64,000 nucleotides of DNA. Source: an uncultured Candidatus Saccharibacteria bacterium. GTDB taxonomy: Bacteria > Patescibacteriota > Saccharimonadia > Saccharimonadales > UBA10212. Shown in pieces: positions 4,546-40,586 of this stretch. Numbering within the stretch: position 1 is the first letter of the stretch; every line of letters starts with the position of its first letter. The translations under genes and the position numbers were made by a program. Where the stretch lies: NCBI GenBank assembly GCA_964624785.1, contig CAZUXR010000002.1, positions 363 through 64,362 on the forward strand, in the 5' to 3' direction. The notes below the pieces were generated by a model, which saw only the letters and a program-made list of their open reading frames with translations, did not search any database and was not told the origin of the DNA.

Positions 4546-5325
4546 ATGCAAAAACTTTTAATTGTCGGAAACTGGAAAATGCATATGAATGCAAGCCAGG
4601 CTAGTTTGCTTTTGCACCGTTTGCAAGAGCGCATTAGAATCCACACCGACATAGAAGTAGTTTTGGCGCCGCCGATGCTAACCCTGCAACCACTAAGCGT
4701 CCAGCTCGATAGGCGCAAATTCCGGCTGGCGTCACAAAATGCCTATCACCGGGATGAAGGCGCGTTCACCGGCGAGGTTAGCTTTACTATGCTGCGCGAT
4801 CTGGTGCATTACGGGATTGTTGGCCATAACGAACGCCGCCATATTTTTAACGAAGATTTGCCGATGATCCGCGACAAAGTGGCGGCCGCTACTCGCAATG
4901 GCATCACCCCAATTTTGTGCGTAGGCGAAACAAAGCACGAAAGGCAACAAGGCGAAACCAAAAGGGTGTTGCATGATCAAATCATGAGTGGCCTTAGCAA
5001 TTTAACTGCCCGAGAAGTTCAGTCGGCAGTTATTGCCTACGAGCCAGTCTGGGCAATCGGTAGCGGCGAAGTAGCCACCCCAGACCAAGTAACAAGCGCC
5101 GTTGATTATATAAGAAGTTACGTCCGTGACGTATTCGGTCCAAAAGCCGCAAAATACCTACGCGTTCTTTACGGCGGCGACGTTGAAGAAGAAGTAGTTA
5201 GTGGTATGTTGGATGTCCCCGGCGTAGACGGGTTTTTGGTTGGTCACGCCAGTCTTAATTATCTTAGTTTTGAAAGTATTGTAAGTGCTGCCCGCAAATG
5301 GCAAAGAAACAAAGGAGAAGAATAG
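4546..5325 (+). CDS. tpiA: Triosephosphate isomerase
   Basis: GNWKMH, VGHNERR, AYEPVWAIGSG and YGGDV motifs. Confidence 0.95.
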   Translation: MQKLLIVGNWKMHMNASQASLLLHRLQERIRIHTDIEVVLAPPMLTLQPLSVQLDRRKFRLASQNAYHRDEGAFTGEVSFTMLRDLVHYGIVGHNERRHIFNEDLPMIRDKVAAATRNGITPILCVGETKHERQQGETKRVLHDQIMSGLSNLTAREVQSAVIAYEPVWAIGSGEVATPDQVTSAVDYIRSYVRDVFGPKAAKYLRVLYGGDVEEEVVSGMLDVPGVDGFLVGHASLNYLSFESIVSAARKWQRNKGEE

Positions 5326-5327
5326 TA

Positions 5328-6737
5328 ATGCCAAGAGACGACGACATAAAAGTATTCGATGTGAGCAAACCTCATAAAAGCGAGCCAAGTGCCAGCAGCC
5401 GGCCGGTAATCGTAGGTCACCACCCAACCATGGCCGACCCAATGGTTAGAGAGGCTTTTAAGAGTCACCACGGCGATGGGCCAAAAATAGAAGTTAAAGG
5501 TGATGAGGATAACGAGGAAAAAATCGAAACTCATCACACTTTTGGCAAATTCCCGCTCGGCCTAGAAGAAAGCGCCTTTGGCGAGCACAGTAACTTTGGC
5601 AATAAAGAGCATTCGGATCATGAAGATCACGATGACCATATGTCTGAGCACAAAACCTTCGGTGATCATAGTGACCACAAAGAACCAGAGCCACCGTACA
5701 AAATAGAGATGCCTGGCAGTGACGATGATGGTTTGTATAACAATAAGCCTGCTGGACACAATACTCCATTGTTTGCCGATAAATCAGAAGACGAGCCAGA
5801 ATCCCCCAAGCCAAGTCACACTTTTAACACTCCTAAAATGTCCGACTCTGACCATTCCCTGTTTGGTGGGCACAAATCAGATAGCGATATGGGTTCCAAT
5901 ACTCACCACCCTACCGTAAGAGCCGAAGATTGGGTAGAGCCTTCGCCGTTGCATATACCGCATGGTGCCGGGCCATATCGCCGTTGGCCAAAAGTAATAA
6001 GTTGGGTTTTGATACTTTTACTTCTCGTGGTAATCGGTGGCTATCTGGCAATCGATGCTGGAATTGTAAAATCCAACATGAAGCTACCCTTCCATATTTT
6101 TAACAAGCAAAAAACTTCCACTGTTGCCGAACCTGCGCCAGCTCCAGCGCCGGTAGCTAAAGCTGCTACTCCCGCAGCTTCCGCCCTACCTCAAGGATTT
6201 ACTAAATACTCTGTGCCAGACACGACTTTGTCGTTTGCCTACCCAACCGCTTGGGGGGCACCGACTACAACGGCAGATCCTGGGTTTAGCCAGCGCAGCA
6301 CCAAAGGCAAATCAGACGGCACTTATGCCTATGTCATAAATTTTGCTACCAGCAAAGACGTTCAAATTGCCATTAGCTCATCCAAATACCTATTCACGCA
6401 TCCCGACGCTCATTACTACGATTATCTAAAATGGTGTGTTGGTACAAACGACGGTAAATTCTACAAAGAAAGCTTGCACTTTAATACGACCGCCGGCGTA
6501 GACACTCCAAGTACAGTAGCTTGCGACAAAGGTCCGCTAGACACCGCTGTCAAAGTAGACGCCACTACAATCATGCAGCCTAAATACAAAGAATCCGCCA
6601 AAGACATAACAGGCGATCTTTACACCAAAAACCTAAAAGCCAGCGATTTAACCGTGCTGCGTGTCATGGACCTGGCAATGACCAACGGTGCCCAGGTTAA
6701 ACAGCTTCTTGGCACGGTCAAAGAAACCGCTCAATAA
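5328..6737 (+). CDS. Hypothetical membrane protein with His/Asp-rich FG-repeat N-terminal region
   Basis: ATG 5328 is preceded by AAAGGAGAAG and follows the tpiA stop; the track ORF start at 5298 overlaps tpiA. The N-terminal ~220 aa is acidic and His-rich with repeated xFGxHSDH units, followed by one TM (VISWVLILLLLVVIGGYLAI) and a ~240-aa extracellular domain. Confidence 0.6.
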   Translation: MPRDDDIKVFDVSKPHKSEPSASSRPVIVGHHPTMADPMVREAFKSHHGDGPKIEVKGDEDNEEKIETHHTFGKFPLGLEESAFGEHSNFGNKEHSDHEDHDDHMSEHKTFGDHSDHKEPEPPYKIEMPGSDDDGLYNNKPAGHNTPLFADKSEDEPESPKPSHTFNTPKMSDSDHSLFGGHKSDSDMGSNTHHPTVRAEDWVEPSPLHIPHGAGPYRRWPKVISWVLILLLLVVIGGYLAIDAGIVKSNMKLPFHIFNKQKTSTVAEPAPAPAPVAKAATPAASALPQGFTKYSVPDTTLSFAYPTAWGAPTTTADPGFSQRSTKGKSDGTYAYVINFATSKDVQIAISSSKYLFTHPDAHYYDYLKWCVGTNDGKFYKESLHFNTTAGVDTPSTVACDKGPLDTAVKVDATTIMQPKYKESAKDITGDLYTKNLKASDLTVLRVMDLAMTNGAQVKQLLGTVKETAQ

Positions 6738-16640: not shown

Positions 16641-18086
16641 ATGAGTAATTTTTATGTGACAACTTCTATTCCGTATGTAAATAGTCCGCCGCATGTTGGA
16701 TTTGGTATGGAGCTAGTAATGGCCGATGTTATCGCGCGCTACGCTCGCGCCCATGATATGCAAGTTTTGTTTTCTACCGGTACCGACGAGCACGGTGGCA
16801 AGATTGCCGAAAAAGCTGTAGAAAATAAAATGACCCCAAAAGAATACGCCGACCAAATCAGTCAGCGGTTTCGCGATTTGTCCGAAAGTCTAAATATTAG
16901 TAATGACTTTTTTATCAGAACTACGGACTCCGGCCATGAACAGCGCGCCCAAAAAATCTGGAAAAACCTAGGCGAACACATATACAAAGGCACATACACC
17001 GGCTGGTATTGCACCGGGGACGAAGAATATTTTCCCGAGCAGGTCGTTAGAGCTAACAAGGGTGTATGCCCAGATCATAAACGTCCCTACGAAGAGTTAA
17101 AAGAAGAAAATTATTTTTTTAAACTTAGCGCCTTTGCTCCAAAGATTAAAGAGGCGATAGAAAGCGAAACCTTGCGCATTGTACCAGGGACCCGCAAAAA
17201 CGAAATTATGTCCGTGATTAACGACGGCCTGGACGACATCAGCATTAGTCGGCCAAAAGATAAAATTTCTTGGGGAGTACCGATTCCAGGCGACTCCGAT
17301 CAGGTTATGTATGTTTGGTTCGAGGCTTTAATGAACTACATCACAGTGCTTGGATATCCGGAAAGTGATAATTTTAAAAAGTTCTGGCCAGCTGACGTGC
17401 AGGTAATCGGCAAAGGAATCCTGCGTTTTCATGCCGCTATCTGGCCGGGAATTTTACTGGCACTTGGGCTCGATCTGCCAAAGAATCTTTATGTACACGG
17501 ATACGTTACCGTAGATAATTCAAAAATGAGCAAGAGCTTGGGCAATACTGTGGCGCCGAATGAAGTGGTAGAAAAGTACGGCGCCGATGCCTTTCGTTAT
17601 TTCTTCCTGCGCCACGTTCCATCTTACGGAGACGGGGACTTTACCTGGGACAAGCTGGAAGCCGCGTACAATAATGAGCTAGCCGACCAACTAGGCAACG
17701 CCGTAAGCCGCACCAGCGCTATGATCGCCAAGTATCAGAATGGATTGATTGGCGATATTCCAGATCCCGATCATGATATTGCCGGCTACGAACAAGCTAT
17801 GGAAGACTTCCATTTTGACCGGGCGCTAAGTGATATTTGGGAACAAGTCAAAGGATTAAACCAATACATAGAAGAGACTAAGCCATGGGAAATTGCTGCC
17901 AGTAACGACCCAGACCATCTGCGCGAAGTACTCGCGTATCTAACCGCTAGTTTGCTGGAAATCGCTGAACTTCTGGCGCCGTTTATGCCCACGACCGCAG
18001 AAAAAATCCAAAGTGTTTTTGCCAGCGGCATACTAAAACCCTTGCCAGAATCTCTGTTCCCAAAGCACGATCAACCAAAAAAATAA
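16641..18086 (+). CDS. metG: Methionine--tRNA ligase
   Basis: PYVNSPPHVGFG (HIGH-like), KMSKSLGN, and an anticodon-binding domain. ATG 16641 is preferred over the track start at 16599. Confidence 0.9.
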   Translation: MSNFYVTTSIPYVNSPPHVGFGMELVMADVIARYARAHDMQVLFSTGTDEHGGKIAEKAVENKMTPKEYADQISQRFRDLSESLNISNDFFIRTTDSGHEQRAQKIWKNLGEHIYKGTYTGWYCTGDEEYFPEQVVRANKGVCPDHKRPYEELKEENYFFKLSAFAPKIKEAIESETLRIVPGTRKNEIMSVINDGLDDISISRPKDKISWGVPIPGDSDQVMYVWFEALMNYITVLGYPESDNFKKFWPADVQVIGKGILRFHAAIWPGILLALGLDLPKNLYVHGYVTVDNSKMSKSLGNTVAPNEVVEKYGADAFRYFFLRHVPSYGDGDFTWDKLEAAYNNELADQLGNAVSRTSAMIAKYQNGLIGDIPDPDHDIAGYEQAMEDFHFDRALSDIWEQVKGLNQYIEETKPWEIAASNDPDHLREVLAYLTASLLEIAELLAPFMPTTAEKIQSVFASGILKPLPESLFPKHDQPKK

Positions 18087-18090
18087 TAGT

Positions 18091-18888
18091 ATGACCCAGA
18101 TTGCCGCTGAACTTTTTGATACGCACTGCCATATTCATTTTGATGATTACGGTTTGGACAAGAACGAGGTTATTCAAAGCGCGCACAACGCTGGAGTAAA
18201 CAAGATGATCTGTGTCGGAACAACTCTAAAAGACAGTGCTATAGCTGTGAAATTTGCTTTTGTTCATGACAATATTTGGGCGAGTGTTGGCATCCATCCC
18301 CACGAAGCAGATGATTTTGACGATTCTTCCGCAGAGATGCTAAAGGATTTAGCTGCACAGGATAAAGTTGTGGCAATCGGCGAGATCGGCCTTGATTATT
18401 ACTATCAAAATAGCAGCAAACAAGCGCAGCTGGACGTTTTAAAAACTCAGATAGAGGTTGGTATTAAGGCAAACTTACCGCTTATTTTTCATGTACGTGA
18501 CAACAAAGAAAACACAGGGGAAGTCTGGCGGGATTTTTGGCGGATTTTTGATTCTTATTCAAACTTGCGGGGAGTGGTCCATAGTTTTAGCGCACATCAA
18601 TCGCAATTGGATCAAATTTTAGGCCGTAATTTATATGTTGGACTGAACGGAATAATGACATTTACTCATGATGAGCGCCAGCTTGCGGCGGCCAAAAAAG
18701 TGCCGCTTGATAAATTAGTTTTAGAAACCGATGCGCCGTTTTTGACTCCCAAACCGTTCCGCGGCAAGGTTTGCGAACCAAAACACGTAGCCAACACGGC
18801 CCGATTCTTAGCGGAACTGCGAGAGGAATCTTACGAAGAACTGGCCAAAGCCACCACAAAAAATGCACTTAATCTGTTTAAACTATAG
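18091..18888 (+). CDS. tatD: TatD-family metal-dependent DNase
   Basis: FDTHCHI, GEIGLDYY, and His/Asp metal ligands. Confidence 0.9.
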   Translation: MTQIAAELFDTHCHIHFDDYGLDKNEVIQSAHNAGVNKMICVGTTLKDSAIAVKFAFVHDNIWASVGIHPHEADDFDDSSAEMLKDLAAQDKVVAIGEIGLDYYYQNSSKQAQLDVLKTQIEVGIKANLPLIFHVRDNKENTGEVWRDFWRIFDSYSNLRGVVHSFSAHQSQLDQILGRNLYVGLNGIMTFTHDERQLAAAKKVPLDKLVLETDAPFLTPKPFRGKVCEPKHVANTARFLAELREESYEELAKATTKNALNLFKL

Positions 18889-18895
18889 TCATAAT

Positions 18896-20035
18896 ATGAA
18901 GAAAATATATATGGACTACGCTGCAGCAACCCCGATGAACAAGCGCGTTGTGGCTGCCATGAAACCCTATTTTAGCGAGCAGTTTTATAACCCGTCCGCA
19001 ACCTATTTAGACGGCCGGGCTGCCAAGCGGTCGCTAGAAGAGGCTCATGGAGTGATCGCTAGTTGGTTAGGCTCAAGACCTTCAGAAATAACTTTCACAG
19101 CAGGCGGAACAGAAGCTAACAACCTAGCTATTCAAGGTGTAATGCGAGCTTATCCAGACGGGGAATTATTGGTAAGCGCCGTGGAGCATGATTCGGTTTT
19201 GGCTCCGGCAAAATTATTTAAGCACAAACAAATTCCGGTAGATGCTCGGGGTATTGTAGATCTAAAAAAATTAGAAAGTATGATTACGCCGTCCACTGTC
19301 ATGGTAAGTGTAATGCAAGTTAATAACGAACTTGGTTCCGTTCAGCCTATAAGAGAAATTTCTAATATCCTTGGCAAAATAAAAAGCGACCGCAAGAGGC
19401 GAGCAAATGCGACGCCGCTCTACTTGCACACAGATGCAGCGCAGGCAGCTAATTTTTTTGATTTGCACATCAGCCGTCTTGGCGTAGATTTACTTAGCTT
19501 AAATGGCGGTAAAATATACGGCCCGAAGCAGACCGGCGCGCTTTATGTAAAAGCCGGCATTGTGCTGCAACCGCTTATCTTGGGCGGCGGCCAGGAACAA
19601 TCTTTGCGCAGTGGTACACAGAATGTAGCAGGGGCGGTCGGACTAGCTAAAGCGCTTGATATAGCTCAAAAAAGCAAAGCCACAGAGGCTGAAAGGCTAA
19701 GAAAACTGCGCAACCTATTTATTGATCTGTTAGAAAAAAATCTCCCAAAAAGCATTATTAACGGATCTACAAAACATTTTTCCCCACATTTGCTGCATAT
19801 TTCGTTTGGGGGGCAGGATAATGAGCGGTTGATGATGCAGCTGGACGAAGCTGGCGTAATGGTGGCTGTGGGCAGCGCATGTAGTGCAAGTTCTAACGAA
19901 CCGTCGCATGTGCTTAAAGCAATTGGCATGAGCGACGAGCAAGCAAGATCAAGCCTGAGATTCAGTTTTGGTAGAAACACTAGCGCTAAAGATATCAAAC
20001 GAACAGTATCACTCCTACAAAAATTTTGTAATTAA
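18896..20035 (+). CDS. Cysteine desulfurase (class V aminotransferase, NifS/IscS-like)
   Basis: YMDYAAATP, a PLP Lys region, and an active-site Cys loop (GSACSA). Confidence 0.85.
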   Translation: MKKIYMDYAAATPMNKRVVAAMKPYFSEQFYNPSATYLDGRAAKRSLEEAHGVIASWLGSRPSEITFTAGGTEANNLAIQGVMRAYPDGELLVSAVEHDSVLAPAKLFKHKQIPVDARGIVDLKKLESMITPSTVMVSVMQVNNELGSVQPIREISNILGKIKSDRKRRANATPLYLHTDAAQAANFFDLHISRLGVDLLSLNGGKIYGPKQTGALYVKAGIVLQPLILGGGQEQSLRSGTQNVAGAVGLAKALDIAQKSKATEAERLRKLRNLFIDLLEKNLPKSIINGSTKHFSPHLLHISFGGQDNERLMMQLDEAGVMVAVGSACSASSNEPSHVLKAIGMSDEQARSSLRFSFGRNTSAKDIKRTVSLLQKFCN

Positions 20036-34659: not shown

Positions 34660-36600
34660 ATGACAGCGGAAGAAATTAGACGAGCTTATTTGGATTTTTT
34701 TGCCAAGCGTGGGCATACGGTGATTCCGCGAGCTCTTTTAGTACCGCAAGATGATCCAACTACTTTATTTACAGGCTCCGGCATGCAGCCGATGGTTCCG
34801 TATTTACTGGGAGAAACCCACCCCGAAGGCAAACGAATCACCAACAGCCAAGTGTGTTTTCGTGCTCAGGATATAGAAGAAGTCGGAGATAGCGAACATA
34901 CAACAACATTCGAAATGCTTGGCAACTGGAGTTTGGGCGACTATTACAAAACCGAGCAAATCGCTTGGATTAGCGAGTTTTTATTTGACGTTGTGGGGTT
35001 AGACCCGCAAAAATTTTATGTGTCGTGCTATATCGGCAACGAAAAGTACAGTATTCCGCGGGACGACCAGGCAATTGAACTGTGGCAGCAAGAATTTAAA
35101 AAACGCGGCATAGACGCCAAAGTGGTAGAAATCGGCTCGGCAGAAAACGGCTCTAAAACTGGCATGCAGGGCGGGCGAATATTCTTATACGACGGAAAAG
35201 AAAACTGGTGGAGCCGCAGCGGCGACGAAGAAGGTACGATGGTGGGCGACCCGTGCGGGCCAGACAGCGAGATGTTTTACGATTTTGGGCAGCAGTACCA
35301 CGATGAGCAAAAGTGGGGCAAAGCTCACCCGGCCAGTGATTCGCCTAGATTTTTCGAAATAGGCAACAACGTTTTTATGGGTTATCGAAAAACGAGTGAT
35401 GGTTTCGAAAAACTGGAACACCCCAACATTGACCACGGGTCGGGCTTGGAACGAATCGCGGCCGCCAGTCTTGATAATCCAGACGTGTTCAAAATTAGCT
35501 TATTCAAGCCAATTATTCAGAAGATTGAAGAAATTTCTGGCAAAAATTATGAAAACCACAAAGAAGCTTTGCAGGTTATTGCCGATCACCTGCGCGGCGC
35601 GGTATTTTTGGCCGTTGATGGCGTAGCGCCCAGCAACAAAGAGCAGGGATATGTGGCCCGCCGGTTGATGCGCCGTGCAATGCTAAAGGCGCACAATCTG
35701 GGTATAGTAAATGTTTTTATAGAGAAAATTGTTCCAGTGATTGCTGATCTGTACCAGGACGATTACCCAGAGATAGTCCAAAAACGTCAACAAATCATCG
35801 ACATTCTTGCAAAAGAAGAAAAGATTTTTTTGGTTACGCTAAAAAAAGGAGTTGCCGAACTTCAAAAATACATTAAAAATAATCAGGCAAAATACGGCAA
35901 AAACAAAGTCGTTATCCCCGGGGATGTAGTCTTTTTTCTTTACGACACCTGCGGTTATCCGCCCGAATTAACCCAGGAAGTGGTGGCCATACTTGATAAC
36001 GGAGTGTTGTCTACAGATTGGAAACAAGATTTCGACCGGCTAATGAAGCAGCAGCGCGAGCGGAGTCAGACGGCTGGCAAAGGCGTGTTTAAGGGAGGGC
36101 TAGCAGATCATTCGGATGAGACTAAAAAATTACATACCGCCACGCACTTGATGTACGAGGCCTTGCGCCGGGTTTTGGGTGACCATGTGGTTCAGCGCGG
36201 ATCCAATGTAACCGCAGAACGCACTCGCTTTGACTTTAGCCATGACCAAAAAGTCACTCGCGAGCAATTGGACGAAGTAGAAAAAATCGTAAACGAACAG
36301 ATCGACAAAGACCTTACAGTAAGCTGGCAAGAACAGCCAACCGACGAAGCGTTTGCTAACGGTGCCAAAGGCGCGTTTGGCGACAAATACGGCGACAAAG
36401 TAAAAGTCTACACCATGGGAATTCCTGGCGAAAAACCATATTCCATAGAAATTTGCGGCGGGCCACACGTAGAACACACTGGCCAGCTAGCCGTGGATTC
36501 GATAAACTCACCATCTGCGAAAGGCAAAAGAAGGTTCAAAATAACCAAAGAAGAAGCCAGCTCCGCCGGAGTCCGAAGAATAAAAGCGATTCTACAGTAA
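34660..36600 (+). CDS. alaS: Alanine--tRNA ligase, short form lacking the C-Ala domain
   Basis: N-terminal class II catalytic motifs (FTGSGMQPMVPY, GNWSLGDYYK) and the editing-domain HxxxH (HTATHLMYEALRRVLGDHVVQRGS). 646 aa, compared with ~870 for canonical AlaRS. Confidence 0.85.
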   Translation: MTAEEIRRAYLDFFAKRGHTVIPRALLVPQDDPTTLFTGSGMQPMVPYLLGETHPEGKRITNSQVCFRAQDIEEVGDSEHTTTFEMLGNWSLGDYYKTEQIAWISEFLFDVVGLDPQKFYVSCYIGNEKYSIPRDDQAIELWQQEFKKRGIDAKVVEIGSAENGSKTGMQGGRIFLYDGKENWWSRSGDEEGTMVGDPCGPDSEMFYDFGQQYHDEQKWGKAHPASDSPRFFEIGNNVFMGYRKTSDGFEKLEHPNIDHGSGLERIAAASLDNPDVFKISLFKPIIQKIEEISGKNYENHKEALQVIADHLRGAVFLAVDGVAPSNKEQGYVARRLMRRAMLKAHNLGIVNVFIEKIVPVIADLYQDDYPEIVQKRQQIIDILAKEEKIFLVTLKKGVAELQKYIKNNQAKYGKNKVVIPGDVVFFLYDTCGYPPELTQEVVAILDNGVLSTDWKQDFDRLMKQQRERSQTAGKGVFKGGLADHSDETKKLHTATHLMYEALRRVLGDHVVQRGSNVTAERTRFDFSHDQKVTREQLDEVEKIVNEQIDKDLTVSWQEQPTDEAFANGAKGAFGDKYGDKVKVYTMGIPGEKPYSIEICGGPHVEHTGQLAVDSINSPSAKGKRRFKITKEEASSAGVRRIKAILQ

Positions 36601-36693
36601 GCTATTTTTGGCGATTATATATTTAACACACCTAAGCAGATAAAAATAATAATAGCACTTGACACACCCATTCTTGTTTGATACACTGTATAT

Positions 36694-37581
36694 ATGCAAG
36701 AGATGACAAACCTAATCGAGTTTTATAACCGCTTTAATGATGAGCAAACTTGTAGAGATTACCTCGAGAAGGCACGTTGGGGTGACAAGATAACTTGCCC
36801 TCACTGTGGAATTATCGGGAATGCCTATAAATATAAGGACGGACGGCTGTTTAAGTGTAAGGACTGCCGAAAGCAGTTTACTGTTCGTGTTGGCACTATC
36901 TTTGAGGACAGCAAACTACCCCTGCAAAAGTGGTTTCTAGCTATTTACTTGGCTACCAGTTTGAAAAAAGGCATTAGCTCAATTCAGCTTAGTAAATACT
37001 TAGGCATCACTCAAAAAACCGCGTGGTTTATGCTTCACCGTATTCGCCACGCTGTTGAAACCAACAATTACGATAAGCCGTTAGATGGTGATGTTGAAAT
37101 GGACGAAACGTATATTGGCGGTAAGACCACCGTGAAGAAAAAGTTTGATAACAAAACGCCTGTAGTCGGCGCAGTTGAGCGTAAAGGACGTGTGGTCGCA
37201 AAAGTTACTGATGACGCGTCATCAACTACCTTACAGAGCGTAATACGCGAGCGTGTTCCGGCAGATGCAAACCTGTACACAGACGACTGGAAAGGCTATC
37301 ACAGGGCAAGTCGCTTAGTGTTCATGCACCGTGCGGTCAATCACTCTAAGAAACAGTGGGCTGTTGGACAGGCGCACACCAATACAATTGAGGGCTTTTG
37401 GGCACATCTTAAGAGAGGTATAGACGGTATTTACCACCACGTTAGCCCCAAGCATCTGCAACGCTATTGCGATGAGTATCAGTATCGCTACAATACTAGA
37501 GAGATGAGTGACGGTGAACGCTTTAACGACTATTTCGCGAGCATACACACTAGACTAGAATATAAGGAGCTATTAGCATGA
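36694..37581 (+). CDS. IS1595-family DDE transposase
   Basis: N-terminal Zn-ribbon (CPHCG...CKDCRK), DDE region (MDETYIGG, YTDDWKGY), and a C-terminal HTNTIEGFW..LKRG..G.YHHVS.KHLQRY..E...RYN motif. Confidence 0.9.
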   Translation: MQEMTNLIEFYNRFNDEQTCRDYLEKARWGDKITCPHCGIIGNAYKYKDGRLFKCKDCRKQFTVRVGTIFEDSKLPLQKWFLAIYLATSLKKGISSIQLSKYLGITQKTAWFMLHRIRHAVETNNYDKPLDGDVEMDETYIGGKTTVKKKFDNKTPVVGAVERKGRVVAKVTDDASSTTLQSVIRERVPADANLYTDDWKGYHRASRLVFMHRAVNHSKKQWAVGQAHTNTIEGFWAHLKRGIDGIYHHVSPKHLQRYCDEYQYRYNTREMSDGERFNDYFASIHTRLEYKELLA

Positions 37582-38558
37582 AAAAAGAAGTTAGAAATAC
37601 TAGTAACCAGAGCGTGGGCAAGAAAATTCCGCGAGCGACTTTTAGCGGAACTTTGGAAATTGGCGACACCAACTCGTTACCTTGTTATGTACTTGAAGAT
37701 GGCCGCCGGATTTTTAGTACCAAGGGTATGATAGAAAGCCTCGGATATAAAGGAAACGCGAACGCGAACGAGATTTTCAGCAATAGAACCTTAGTACCGT
37801 ACCTCATGGCGCACGGCGACCCTTATCATTCTGGCAACTTGGTTGACTTTATTACTGACAGAGGAACTCCGGCCAAAGGTATTGATGTAGAGAAGTTCAT
37901 GGATGTTTGCCATGCTTACTCCGAGGCTTTGGACAGTGGAACACTGAAAGGCAGGAACGCGGACGCGGCCTTGCAAGCCAACGCCATTATCCGTGCTTCA
38001 TCTAAACTAGGTATTGTCGCTCTCGTTGATGAGGTTACAGGCTACCAGTATGTTCGAGCCGAGGACGCACTGCAATTCAAGCTAAAACTGTTTTTGGCAG
38101 AAGAAATGCGCGGTTGGGAAAAGACATTCCCCGATGAACTATGGATAGAGTTTGCACGCTTAACCCAATGGGAAGGACAACCAACTAAAAACCGCCCACG
38201 CTACTGGGGTTATTTAGTTATGGACTTGATATACCGTTATTTAGACCCCGAAGTCGCGAGCTATATAAAAGAGAATAAACCCAAGCCACGCAAGGGTCAG
38301 AATTATCACCAATGGTTTAACGATGACTACGGCATGAAACGACTGATTGAACATATCAACCGTGTCATCGGTATGGCTCAAGGCTGTGACACAATGGACG
38401 AGCTGAAAAAGAAAATGCACCACCGCTATGGTGGTCAACCGATACAGCTTGAAATGTTTATAGATGACCACGATAAGCGTGAGATACCCACTAAGATTGA
38501 TATGCCCTTTGATGAAGCTCTAGCAAAAATTGCCAAAGCCGACCCACCGAAGAAATAG
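37578..38558 (+). CDS. IS passenger protein of unknown function (possibly phage-related; P63C-like resemblance is unverified)
   Basis: Its ATG overlaps the transposase stop (ATGA). 326 aa with motifs VDEVTGYQYVR and W.KTFPDELW.EF.RL..W...RPRYWGY. No transposition motifs. Confidence 0.45.
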   Translation: MKKEVRNTSNQSVGKKIPRATFSGTLEIGDTNSLPCYVLEDGRRIFSTKGMIESLGYKGNANANEIFSNRTLVPYLMAHGDPYHSGNLVDFITDRGTPAKGIDVEKFMDVCHAYSEALDSGTLKGRNADAALQANAIIRASSKLGIVALVDEVTGYQYVRAEDALQFKLKLFLAEEMRGWEKTFPDELWIEFARLTQWEGQPTKNRPRYWGYLVMDLIYRYLDPEVASYIKENKPKPRKGQNYHQWFNDDYGMKRLIEHINRVIGMAQGCDTMDELKKKMHHRYGGQPIQLEMFIDDHDKREIPTKIDMPFDEALAKIAKADPPKK

Positions 38559-38795
38559 TTACCGCTTTATGCCGAGAATTGCGCCGAGTACAAACGAGCC
38601 GATGAGTAGAAGTATAGCGTGTGAGAGTTTATAGCTAAAGAACGCCCAGACAACACCACCAAGCCATACAATGCCACCTAATGAGCTGAGATATAGATTT
38701 AACTTGGGTTTACGGTGAGCGTCAGGCTGTAGCTTGTCAGAGAAGGCTACCAGTACAACCCCGATGATAATCAATGCGATTGGCATAACTGACAT
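38559..38795 (-). CDS. Small two-TM membrane protein encoded inside the IS (antisense orientation)
   Basis: 78 aa, hydrophobic (MSVMPIALIIIGVVLVAF...ILLLIGSFVLGAILGIKR). Lies wholly within the TIRs. Confidence 0.35.
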   Translation of the reverse strand: MSVMPIALIIIGVVLVAFSDKLQPDAHRKPKLNLYLSSLGGIVWLGGVVWAFFSYKLSHAILLLIGSFVLGAILGIKR

Positions 38796-38878
38796 TATAC
38801 ATTAGGTGTGTTAAATATATAATCGCCCTATTTTTCATAATCCCGACAGAGAGCAAATGTGCTATAATCAATCTGATT

Positions 38879-39292
38879 ATGCCCAGTAGTAGACTTTCGA
38901 GTTATTCCGCTGAAGCGGAATCTGCGTCTCGCCAAAAACGAGTCGGTCTCGAAAGGTCACTACCGGGCCAACCTAGTAGTGAGCTTTCTGTAACGTTCTG
39001 TTACGTCTACATTTTAAGATCATTCTCTACCGGCAATTTTTACATTGGATTTACTCATGATTTACGAAGGCGGGTAACAGAACATAAAAAAGGTTTAAAT
39101 CGTTCGACTAAAGCATATGCATCATCGTGGGAACTGGTATACTATGAAGCACATAGAAGCGAAATCGACGCGCGTAGGCGCGAGCAGTATCTCAAGACTA
39201 CGGCGGGCAATAGAGCGCTTAAGAAAATGATGCGAGAACAGTTACTAATGTACGATTTAAACAACAGAAAGTCTACTACTAGGTATGCTTGA
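38879..39292 (+). CDS. GIY-YIG nuclease family protein (small, UPF0213-like) with ~45-aa N-terminal extension
   Basis: YVYILRSFSTGNFYIGFTHDLRRRVTEHKKG...WELVYYE is the GIY-YIG core. TATAAT lies 10 nt upstream of ATG 38879 (leaderless), and there is no in-frame alternative start before the core. Confidence 0.65.
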   Translation: MPSSRLSSYSAEAESASRQKRVGLERSLPGQPSSELSVTFCYVYILRSFSTGNFYIGFTHDLRRRVTEHKKGLNRSTKAYASSWELVYYEAHRSEIDARRREQYLKTTAGNRALKKMMREQLLMYDLNNRKSTTRYA

Positions 39293-40586
39293 AAAGGCCA
39301 AAACTCTAAAAAGTAAATTACCAAGCGTTAAGGGATCGGGACGCCCCAGTCGTGCTATTGGCCAATACATCGTGGCGCTGGATATTGGCACGGAATTCGT
39401 AAAAGCGCTTGTTGGGCGCGTGGTTGGCGAGCAGATAGAAATTATCGGCGTGGGCAAAACCCATCAGCAGCTAACAGATATGCAAGCTGGGGCTATTGCC
39501 GACATCGCGGCGGTAGTTAATAATTGCGACAAAGCTTTAGCGGCCGCCGAACAACAAGCCGGTGTGAGCGTGCGTACAGCAGTAATTGGCATTGCCGGCG
39601 AACTAGTCAAAGGCACTACATCTACGGTTCGCTTTACCCGCAAAAATTCTAGCCAAGAAATTGGCATAGAAGAAATGGGCCGAATAATCGAACTCGTACA
39701 AGAACGCGCCGAAGCCAAGGCTCGCAAAGAGCTAGCTTGGGAACTTGGCGGCAAAGACGTGGATGTGCGATTGGTTAACAGCGCACTGGTGCGCATAGAC
39801 ATCGATGGTTACAAAGTAACTAATCCGGTTGGATTCCAGGGGCGAGACATAGTTGTAGAAATGTACACAGCGTTTGCGCCGATGATTCACATTGGAGCAT
39901 TGGAGCGAACCGCCGCGGAGCTCGACCTGGAGTTGCTTGCTGTGGCCGCAGAGCCATTCGCCGTAGCTAGGTCTATGGTTGGCGATGATCCAAACGCTAG
40001 TATTAGTGCGATTTTAATGGACGTAGGCGGTGGCACAACCGACATTGCCGTTATTAACGAAGGGGGCGTAGAAGGAACCAAGATGTTTGGCATTGGTGGC
40101 CGAGCCTTTACTCACGCCATTGAGCGTGAACTCGACATTGACTTTAATCAGGCAGAAGCCGTAAAAATCGCGCTGGATACTGACCGTGTAGGGCATAAAC
40201 AAAAAGAAGATTCCAAAAAAGCTCTAACCAAAACCTTGAATGTTTGGGCGAATGGGGTAGAACTGGCTCTGTCCGAATTCAACAAACTCGACCACCTGCC
40301 GCATCGCATGTTACTCTGTGGGGGAGGTTCCAGCTTGGAAATGTTGATGGAAAAACTAGATTCCGACGACTGGCACAAGGTGCTGCCATTTACCCGCAAA
40401 CCGATTATTCAGTATATTAAACCCGACGAAGTAGCAGGAATTACCGACACAACTGGCGACGTTACCGACCACACATTTATTACAGCGATGGGCTTGCTGC
40501 GAGTTGGCATGGACACGCTCAGCAATGGCGCAGCCGACAGCCCAGGAACAGTTAAGGATAAACTTAATAGAATATTAAAGATATAA
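39285..40586 (+). CDS. ftsA: Actin-like ATPase, FtsA-like (PilM-like not excluded)
   Basis: IVALDIGTEFVKALVG, MDVGGGTTDIAV, and LCGGGSS. Its 433-aa length fits FtsA. Confidence 0.6.
   Translation: MLEKAKTLKSKLPSVKGSGRPSRAIGQYIVALDIGTEFVKALVGRVVGEQIEIIGVGKTHQQLTDMQAGAIADIAAVVNNCDKALAAAEQQAGVSVRTAVIGIAGELVKGTTSTVRFTRKNSSQEIGIEEMGRIIELVQERAEAKARKELAWELGGKDVDVRLVNSALVRIDIDGYKVTNPVGFQGRDIVVEMYTAFAPMIHIGALERTAAELDLELLAVAAEPFAVARSMVGDDPNASISAILMDVGGGTTDIAVINEGGVEGTKMFGIGGRAFTHAIERELDIDFNQAEAVKIALDTDRVGHKQKEDSKKALTKTLNVWANGVELALSEFNKLDHLPHRMLLCGGGSSLEMLMEKLDSDDWHKVLPFTRKPIIQYIKPDEVAGITDTTGDVTDHTFITAMGLLRVGMDTLSNGAADSPGTVKDKLNRILKI

Follow-up and report, generated by a model that had tools for sequence, protein, structure and literature searches.

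The DNA analysed here, hereafter the window, is a 64,000-nt stretch of contig CAZUXR010000002.1 (positions 363 to 64,362 of the forward strand; assembly GCA_964624785.1) from an uncultured Candidatus Saccharibacteria bacterium. At 36610-38827 it carries an intact 2,218-bp insertion sequence (IS) of the IS1595 family, in which a DDE transposase gene is followed by a second open reading frame (ORF2), encoding a 326-aa protein of the P63C family, and, on the opposite strand, by a gene for a 78-aa small membrane protein. A first-pass annotation, generated by a model from the sequence, had placed the 326-aa and 78-aa ORFs here with their ends abutting at 38558/38559 and had assigned them to an IS as cargo. 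Both are real genes, as their homologues and the purifying selection acting on them show, and inverted repeats (IRs), target-site duplications (TSDs) and the transposase show that both do lie in an IS. The P63C protein is one of several interchangeable DNA-directed modules that occupy the ORF2 position in this IS clade.

Organization of the IS1595-family element

Two features place the element in the IS1595 family: a zinc-ribbon DDE transposase, and IRs accompanied by 8-bp TSDs, 8 bp being the TSD length of this family. The terminus GGCGATTATATA... is common to the window element and its relatives L001, L003, L010, L011 and L013, and these five, whose ends are readable, have 8-bp TSDs of their own (TTAGATTT, TTAGAGTT, ATTGAATG, CTATACTT and TACTTCTG). 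We are highly confident of this anatomy, that is, of an intact IS1595-family IS with an ORF2. The element may belong to the ISNwi1-like subgroup, its termini, GGCGATTAT, being compatible with the ggnnatTAT consensus of that subgroup in the ISfinder/'Everyman's guide' table. Its nearest relatives all come from metagenome-assembled genomes of Candidatus Saccharibacteria; a further copy was looked for in the 64-kb window, and none was found.

The transposase matches PF12760 (Zn_ribbon_IS1595, E=7e-16) and PF12762 (DDE_Tnp_IS1595, ISXO2-like, E=4e-41), both above their cut-offs, and NCBIfam NF033547 (E=7e-63; 212 bits, cut-off 75; profile positions 2-215 of 215). Compared with other IS copies, its ratio of nonsynonymous to synonymous differences per site (pN/pS) is 0.12-0.34 with synonymous sites saturated, indicating purifying selection. 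ISPepr2, at 39% identity, is the nearest named relative that we encountered, and the plasmid-borne relatives carry only generic names of the type 'IS1595 family transposase'. The ATG of ORF2 overlaps the TGA of the transposase (ATGA, 37578-37581) and is preceded by AAGGAG 9 nt upstream, an arrangement that points to translation of ORF2 by coupling to the transposase. The features of the element are collected in Table 1.

Table 1 Features of the IS1595-family element, in window coordinates. IRL and IRR, left and right inverted repeats; AF2, AlphaFold2; pLDDT, predicted local distance difference test score.
Feature	Position	Strand	Details
Left TSD	36602..36609	.	8 bp, CTATTTTT, identical to 38828-38835
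IRL	36610..36635	+	GGCGATTATATATTTAACACACCTAA, 26 nt, 100% complementary to 38802-38827
Second promoter-like sequence, TTAACA-16-AATAAT	36623..36650	+	Consensus match only; in and just past IRL
Promoter-like sequence, TTGACA-17-TACACT	36659..36687	+	Consensus match only; ends 6 nt 5' of transposase ATG
IS1595-family DDE transposase	36694..37581	+	295 aa, apparently intact; Pfam, NCBIfam
ORF2, P63C-family protein	37578..38558	+	326 aa; ATG start; stop TAG 38556-38558
N-terminal beta/alpha domain of ORF2	37629..38000	+	Residues ~18-141; AF2 pLDDT 90-97
P63C domain of ORF2	38085..38345	+	Residues 170-256, PF10546; within all-alpha domain ~146-283 (AF2)
C-terminal ORF2 tag	38490..38555	+	Residues 305-326, TKIDMPFDEALAKIAKADPPKK; short helix (AF2 311-320) after flexible linker
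Small membrane-protein gene	38559..38795	-	78 aa; ATG; slot between ORF2 and IRR
IRR	38802..38827	-	26 nt, pairs perfectly with IRL; outer 23 nt identical to IRR of L001
Right TSD	38828..38835	.	8 bp, CTATTTTT

Pairing of transposase and P63C in other genomes

The six related Saccharibacteria copies that were fetched (L001, L003, L007, L010, L011 and L013) all show the transposase-P63C arrangement, with P63C proteins 67-91% identical to the window ORF2. The right end is readable in five of them, the contig of L007 stopping before it; the L001 version of the IS is 1,954 bp long. The first-pass annotation had described the 326-aa gene as IS cargo; it does lie within the IS, but it is not an occasional passenger in this lineage, being a conserved coupled ORF2 in 7/7 Saccharibacteria-type copies examined. 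A transposase/ORF2 overlap of 4-11 nt recurs in L001, L003, L010, L011 and L013, and also in L061, L073, L076 and L077, which are elements of Acidobacteriota, Firmicutes and Alphaproteobacteria.

For a wider survey, the best 80 species-representative P63C loci from an iterative search were examined, and a transposase was counted if it lay within 600 bp. An IS1595-type or IS1-like DDE transposase was found beside P63C in ~45 of the 80 loci (~56%). Transposases of IS1595 type, truncated copies counted, account for ~19 loci, and distantly related IS1-like DDE transposases, composed of a helix-turn-helix (HTH) and DDE_Tnp_IS1, for ~25; when IS1-like proteins were checked by Pfam, 5 of 9 scored above cut-off. 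The two genes occur in tandem, reversed and divergent orders. Two-gene units bounded by IRs and 8-bp TSDs were delimited at L023, L053, L075, L035 and L077; that at L065 is also IR-bounded, but the direct repeat detected there is 6 bp long. Pairwise identities of the transposases correlate poorly with those of the P63C proteins (Spearman 0.17). IS lineages have exchanged these modules, but the pairing itself has been retained. Decay of the transposase has left P63C intact at several loci (L005/L006, L067, L085 and L088), and at ~34 loci there is no transposase, the neighbours being integrases, Prim-Pol, DUF4747, Fic and SocA.

A second class of unit, which combines an HTH + IS1-like DDE transposase with an HTH-P63C protein, was observed at L023 (2850-5239), L053 (2848-5178) and L075 (2792-5199), as well as at L014, L015, L018 and others. 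These units have IRs beginning GGTAGTG or GGTGGTG and 8-bp TSDs, and come from Chloroflexi, Proteobacteria, Acidobacteria and other phyla. At L005 (185-1546, the same as L006) the transposase is reduced to a 118-aa zinc-ribbon part beside an intact P63C, and protein P0016 is an in-frame fusion of a transposase fragment with a P63C protein that has an internal deletion.

Interchangeable ORF2 modules with a shared tag

When metagenomes were scanned with the transposase of the window element, 80 loci at 41-53% identity were obtained, of which ~70 were informative. A P63C gene lies downstream of the transposase in ~10 of these loci, and ~60 with enough flanking sequence have none. An ORF coupled to the transposase stop is present in ~30 of the 80, and modules other than P63C in this slot comprise Dam-class N6-adenine methyltransferases (PF02086, E=1e-57), Bro-N proteins, KilA-N proteins, a PLD-domain (PLDc_2) protein and small function-unknown proteins, together with further DPPY (N4/N6) methyltransferases whose motif was recognised by eye. 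P63C is not required for transposition, because most equally related transposases lack it. The possibility that P63C is an obligatory core gene of this transposase clade was rejected on the same count, most metagenome relatives being without it.

Many of the ORF2 proteins of related IS, otherwise unrelated to each other, have in common a peptide of ~20 aa, the ORF2 tag, which is not present in all of them and roughly follows the consensus phi-x-phi-x-x-F-D/N-E/K-x-L-x-K/R-I/A-A/L-x-x-x-P-basic. The tag is C-terminal in P63C, KilA-N and small function-unknown ORF2 proteins and N-terminal in methyltransferase ORF2s, Bro-N ORF2s and alphaproteobacterial P63C proteins; it also occurs free-standing, as a very basic 50-75-aa ORF directly 3' of the transposase. 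Tag-bearing loci are found among L098-L177 (for example L105 3914-, L152 1114-1962 and L168 1033-1278, the ORF2 of L168 being of the free-standing kind). A hidden Markov model (HMM) of the tag, built from 34 instances, gave 49 matches scoring 10 bits or more across the IS loci (1.68 million residues in six frames), ~10 of them new to the model. All 49 lie on the transposase strand, at N-terminal, C-terminal or free-standing ORF2 positions. No match at this level was obtained in the reversed control, where the maximum was 8.2 bits, or in the phage loci (0.72 million residues), where it was 8.4 bits.

Synonymous sites within the tag are saturated, with pN of 0.10-0.37, which places the constraint at the level of the peptide rather than of the DNA. 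A role of the tag as a cis DNA site was rejected, given its saturated synonymous sites and its occurrence at either end of ORF2. We infer that the tag may bind the transposase or IS DNA, as an adaptor of this clade's own. No description of the motif was found in the searchable literature, including that on the IS1595 family.

Family, conservation and predicted structure of the P63C protein

P63C is the sole Pfam match of the window ORF2 (PF10546, E=1.4e-23; 83.7 bits against a gathering threshold of 26.1; profile positions 3-93 of 93), and all 67 aligned homologues match the same family. Residues 10-299 match phrog_2384, a function-unknown PHROG, at E=6.7e-74 (profile positions 33-337 of 338). 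There are more than 1,300 P63C homologues of ORF2 (clusters), with matches in ~590 species genomes. Compared with other IS copies, ORF2 has a pN/pS of 0.09-0.28 with synonymous sites saturated, again indicating purifying selection, and 34 columns are invariant across the 67 homologues, including D151, E152, T154, G155, Q157, R160, K168, W180, W189, R206, W210 and H259. The Pfam result bears out the first-pass guess of a P63C-type protein. Its statement that the protein has no recognisable catalytic domain holds as well, since neither a housekeeping enzyme nor any other enzyme was matched in Pfam, NCBIfam or PDB, and NCBIfam models gave no match of any kind. An exact-sequence look-up found no record identical to ORF2 or to the 78-aa protein, and nothing was found in the literature on the function of P63C or on a link between P63C and IS.

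In an AF2 model based on the 67 homologues (mean pLDDT 83), the N-terminal domain contains strands at residues 19-28, 32-39, 44-47, 88-92 and 98-103, and the P63C domain is followed by a low-confidence or disordered linker and then by the short terminal helix. A Foldseek search of the BFVD viral library returned an unnamed protein as the top match and Mx8 p63 as the second. The 50 best BFVD matches include many Bro/Bro-N entries that resemble the N-terminal domain, all of them weakly (E 0.01-0.3, probability up to 0.99, low TM-scores), and this domain may, judged by its modelled fold, be Bro-N-like. The resemblance to phage antirepressors and DNA-binding domains suggested earlier thus stands as regards phage relatives and a weak fold likeness to Bro-N, but it has no counterpart at the sequence level: Pfam Bro-N (PF02498) and KilA-N (PF04383) match neither the window ORF2 (E<=0.1) nor the 67 homologues (E<=0.05), and ORF2 has no ANT/KilAC Pfam match. 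Farther homologues, at ~50% identity, have an extra N-terminal HTH of the Cro/YdaS/CI type.

P63C genes in phages and prophages

Full-length P63C homologues are present in 61 phage records, all of temperate phages or satellites. In five unrelated lineages the P63C gene immediately follows the immunity repressor gene in the same orientation: Erwinia phage Midgardsormr38, Salmonella phage SI8, ST104 (orf23), Gordonia phage Kuwabara (gp48) and Streptococcus phage Javan515, where an integrase comes next (repressor-P63C-integrase). At 71 viral-contig loci, the gene most often found upstream of P63C encodes a Peptidase_S24 repressor (12/71), HTH proteins of the Cro/CI type ranking second; IS1595 transposases take this position in 4-5 of the 71. 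A conserved small membrane partner was not seen at P63C loci of phages or genomes.

In phage 933W (L090, record positions 16823-19455), P63C belongs to the nin region and has a DNA methyltransferase on one side and Roi on the other. Roi is annotated as roi/anti-repressor in the record, and DNA methyltransferases and P63C are also both ORF2 modules of the IS clade.

Lambda rexAB and 933W stk are typical lysogen-expressed exclusion genes in a repressor-adjacent position. Gordonia phage CarolAnn has a lysogen-expressed exclusion system, gp43/gp44, beside its repressor, and RexAB-type systems, which consist of a cytosolic and a membrane protein, adjoin cI (PMC6426606). CarolAnn gp43/gp44 were considered as P63C-like and rejected, being DUF4747/RexA-like.

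The 78-aa membrane-protein gene and the variable slot

The stop codons of ORF2 and the small gene abut, the ORF2 TAG (38556-38558) being followed by TTA (38559-38561), the complement of TAA. The small ORF had been described as antisense and its product as having two transmembrane segments. The two genes are indeed convergent, but they do not overlap and would be antisense to each other only if transcripts read through; the protein has three hydrophobic segments, at residues 4-18, 36-53 and 58-75, and not clearly two. Two homologues were found, P0121 (67% identity) and P0122 (73%). In comparison with these, pN is ~0.2 against a saturated pS of ~0.78, and the 78-aa ORF is therefore a real gene under purifying selection. 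Models of Pfam, PHROG, NCBIfam and PADLOC gave no match to its product.

Translation of the small ORF may actually start at Met4 (38786). The window element and L009 each have a TATAAT at a distance of exactly 28 nt from the terminus, with an ATG 6-7 nt further on, and L008, too, has a TATAAT spaced 6-7 nt from the small-ORF ATG that follows it. Such spacing suggests a leaderless transcript starting near Met4. A terminator-like hairpin with a T-run is present on the minus strand at 38419-38435, within the ORF2 coding sequence and 125 nt past the small-ORF stop, and may terminate this transcript; the corresponding codons of L007, read by eye, do not form the hairpin.

Other IS copies with a readable right end (L001, L003, L010, L011 and L013) lack the small ORF in 5 of 5 cases. 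The distance from the P63C stop to the IRR is 7 nt in L001, ~35 nt in L011, ~120 nt in L003, 243 nt in the window and ~710-745 nt in L010 and L013. In the latter two the slot holds an HNH homing endonuclease (PF01844 with PF18780 homing-endonuclease repeats), at 4990-5661 on the minus strand of L010 and 4953-5684 on the plus strand of L013. The two homologues of the small ORF are located in L008 and L009, neither of them beside P63C. The L008 homologue abuts a 5S/23S rRNA operon (read by eye). The L009 homologue is part of a 789-bp cassette without a transposase (219-1007) and is situated just within one of its ends; the cassette has IS1595-like IRs (GGCGACTAT..., 31 nt, 81% complementary), an 8-9-bp direct repeat, (C)AGTCGAGT, and a different neighbour, a 165-aa ORF with a hydrophobic C-terminus.

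With its IRs, TSD and small membrane-protein gene and its lack of a transposase, the L009 cassette is like the mobile insertion cassettes and miniature inverted-repeat transposable element-like derivatives of IS. It is a related locus, not the window IS, and suggests a route by which the small gene entered the latter: most likely, the window IS acquired the 78-aa gene by exchange with an L009-type cassette. The gene is a passenger, recently picked up and acquired independently of P63C. The first-pass annotation had seen in the two convergent genes a toxin-membrane pair or a phage-exclusion module, and had offered conservation of the small ORF across IS copies as a test. The small ORF is not conserved, and the idea of a partner pair fails because it is absent from the other copies and is found elsewhere without P63C.

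Proposed role of P63C and alternatives

The window P63C protein is probably a DNA-directed accessory factor of the IS. We propose that it would act by binding nucleic acid, as neither an enzyme nor a toxin, and that it would be made whenever the resident element is expressed, through coupling to the transposase. Its core activity would be independent of the transposase, because the family thrives in prophages and islands and survives transposase decay. The protein might interfere with incoming mobile DNA, through exclusion or through regulation in trans. This part of the proposal is drawn by analogy, an exclusion role being favoured because it is the usual one of genes co-transcribed with a prophage repressor, and we consider it possible but doubtful. 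The tag would serve as the clade's own adaptor to the transposase or to IS DNA. For the statement as a whole, an ORF2 accessory factor of the IS with an exclusion-type role, we see the balance as nearly even, leaning slightly to the negative.

Several points weigh against this proposal. The term 'DNA-binding' derives from weak fold matches of Bro-N type and from HTH domains that relatives possess, and the window ORF2 itself has no HTH. There is no related solved structure: Foldseek with the ORF2 model found nothing related in PDB (best E=0.68), and neither single-sequence nor profile searches of PDB found a relative (best E=0.23). An hhalign comparison of the P63C alignment with a small Bro-N/KilA-N set was not significant (probability 0.55%). 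None of the PADLOC-DB v2 defence models matched ORF2 or the 78-aa protein at E<=0.1, and the literature searched yielded no experimental work on a P63C protein. The conserved D/E/H/W/Y/R residues could leave room for an unrecognised enzymatic activity. For a defence gene, expression through coupling to a transposase that is normally weakly expressed would be unusual, and the tag speaks for a physical connection with the machinery of the IS, a point in favour of a role in transposition itself.

In that alternative, ORF2 would be a transposition modulator or adaptor, docked by its tag on the transposase or the IS ends, with a P63C/Bro-N-like body that binds DNA and tunes transposase expression, synapsis of the ends or target choice, much as InsA acts in IS1 or Dam controls IS10. 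The transposase-ORF2 start/stop overlap is kept across phyla, and the tag is restricted to ORF2 proteins of this transposase clade, the free-standing basic ORF2 included, and is absent from phage P63C. The alternative ORF2 modules (methyltransferases, Bro-N, KilA-N and the PLD-domain protein) all act on DNA, and ~56% of P63C loci are linked to transposases of the IS1/IS1595 superfamily despite shuffling. However, most related transposases have no P63C, P63C is abundant in prophages and islands without a transposase, and it stays intact after transposase decay, so that its core function cannot be transposase-specific; we regard a modulator as somewhat unlikely. A more general scheme, a modular ORF2 system in which the basic tag would be an adaptor to the transposase or transpososome and DNA-directed domains (P63C, Bro-N, KilA-N, Dam and N4/N6 methyltransferases, possibly PLD) would be grafted at either end, is in our judgement unlikely. 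If it were true, the IS would supply the transposition site with a DNA-binding or DNA-modifying partner of its own, and P63C would be a widespread, unrecognised class of transposase partner, also in IS1-like elements and prophage immunity regions.

We think it improbable that P63C is an antirepressor or anti-defence factor, that is, a Bro-N-type protein that neutralises a regulator or defence protein in the manner of Ant and aids establishment or induction. The weak fold likeness to Bro and 'repressor domain' proteins is offset by the lack of any ANT/KilAC or Bro-N Pfam match. The Javan515 order of repressor, P63C and integrase is suggestive, ImmA-type antirepressors occupying the equivalent position in ICEBs1, but several of the adjacent repressors are of the self-cleaving S24 type, which need no antirepressor, and co-transcription with the element's own repressor would be unusual. 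Sister IS carry orphan methyltransferases, which are classic anti-restriction cargo, and the location of 933W P63C between a methyltransferase and Roi in the nin region also fits. A passive hitch-hiker, with no current function in this host, would agree with P63C being optional for the transposase clade; strong purifying selection (pN/pS 0.09-0.28, synonymous sites saturated), an intact full-length frame, 34 invariant columns in 67 sequences and the conserved start/stop overlap make it very improbable. A two-gene toxin/membrane or RexAB-like exclusion module of P63C and the 78-aa protein is scarcely credible. The genes converge with abutting stops, both are under purifying selection, and RexAB offers a precedent for a cytosolic and a membrane protein encoded beside cI (PMC6426606). 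Against this, L001 (whose IRR follows 7 nt past the P63C stop), L003 and L011 lack the small ORF, an HNH gene stands in its place in L010 and L013, its only two homologues do not adjoin P63C, and no small membrane partner is conserved at P63C loci of phages or genomes.

Relation to known systems

The window element resembles the IS1595 family, in particular ISNwi1-like, passenger-bearing derivatives, in its single zinc-ribbon DDE transposase, IRs, 8-bp TSD and extra genes before the IRR; it differs in that the extra gene is a conserved ORF2 overlapping the transposase stop, found across phyla and bearing a clade-specific 22-aa tag. The P63C proteins of temperate phages (the namesake p63 of Myxococcus phage Mx8, L0095 of 933W, orf23 of ST104 and phrog_2384) are 25-45% identical to the window protein over residues ~18-300, whereas P63C proteins of phages and islands have no transposase, often carry an N-terminal HTH of the Cro/YdaS type and lack the C-terminal tag. 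Genuine Bro-N and KilA-N proteins, a type known from DNA viruses, occupy the ORF2 slot of sister IS, with the same tag, and the window N-terminal domain shows the weak fold match described above, but the window ORF2 has no sequence-level match to them. Phage P63C genes, directly downstream of and co-oriented with cI, are placed like those of lambda RexAB, CarolAnn gp43/gp44 and 933W Stk, although there is no sequence relationship (no DUF4747, no kinase) and P63C is a single gene with no membrane protein as a conserved partner. For P63C, an exclusion phenotype has not been reported.

P63C is a large function-unknown family with members in the Shiga-toxin phage 933W and in P22-like Salmonella phages, and the locus shows it as a recurrent partner of IS1595/IS1-like transposases and a recurrent downstream neighbour of the prophage repressor. 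The analysis further shows, in reduced Saccharibacteria genomes, small IS with a fixed two-gene core and a variable cargo slot, which holds an HNH homing endonuclease in some copies and a small membrane-protein gene in others. As first written, the finding was a fairly ordinary passenger-carrying IS, a modest variation on a known theme; if the shared peptide is an adaptor, it would represent a new principle of IS organisation. Neither the breadth of the P63C-transposase association, nor the repressor-adjacent pattern, nor the shared tag was found in the searchable literature.

Promoter-like sequences and neighbouring genes

The promoter-like site 6 nt before the transposase ATG suggests that the transposase mRNA may be leaderless, and a further promoter-like sequence, TATACA-16-TATAAT at 38796-38823 on the plus strand, within the IRR, faces outward to the genes on the right and could be an IS-borne outward promoter; promoter-like consensus matches in the region do not exceed in number the shuffled expectation. 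Scans of 36000-39600 for tRNA genes and Rfam families were empty. The left neighbour of the element is the alanyl-tRNA synthetase gene (34660-36600), and on the right a GIY-YIG gene is followed by ftsA. The GIY-YIG ORF (38879-39292, 137 aa; PF01541, E=5e-14), in which the domain begins only at residue 41, overlaps the start of ftsA (39285). It is bracketed by 20-21-nt IRs (38879-38898 with 39267-39286, and 38971-38991 with 39264-39284), and could represent a small unit, either mobile or structured.

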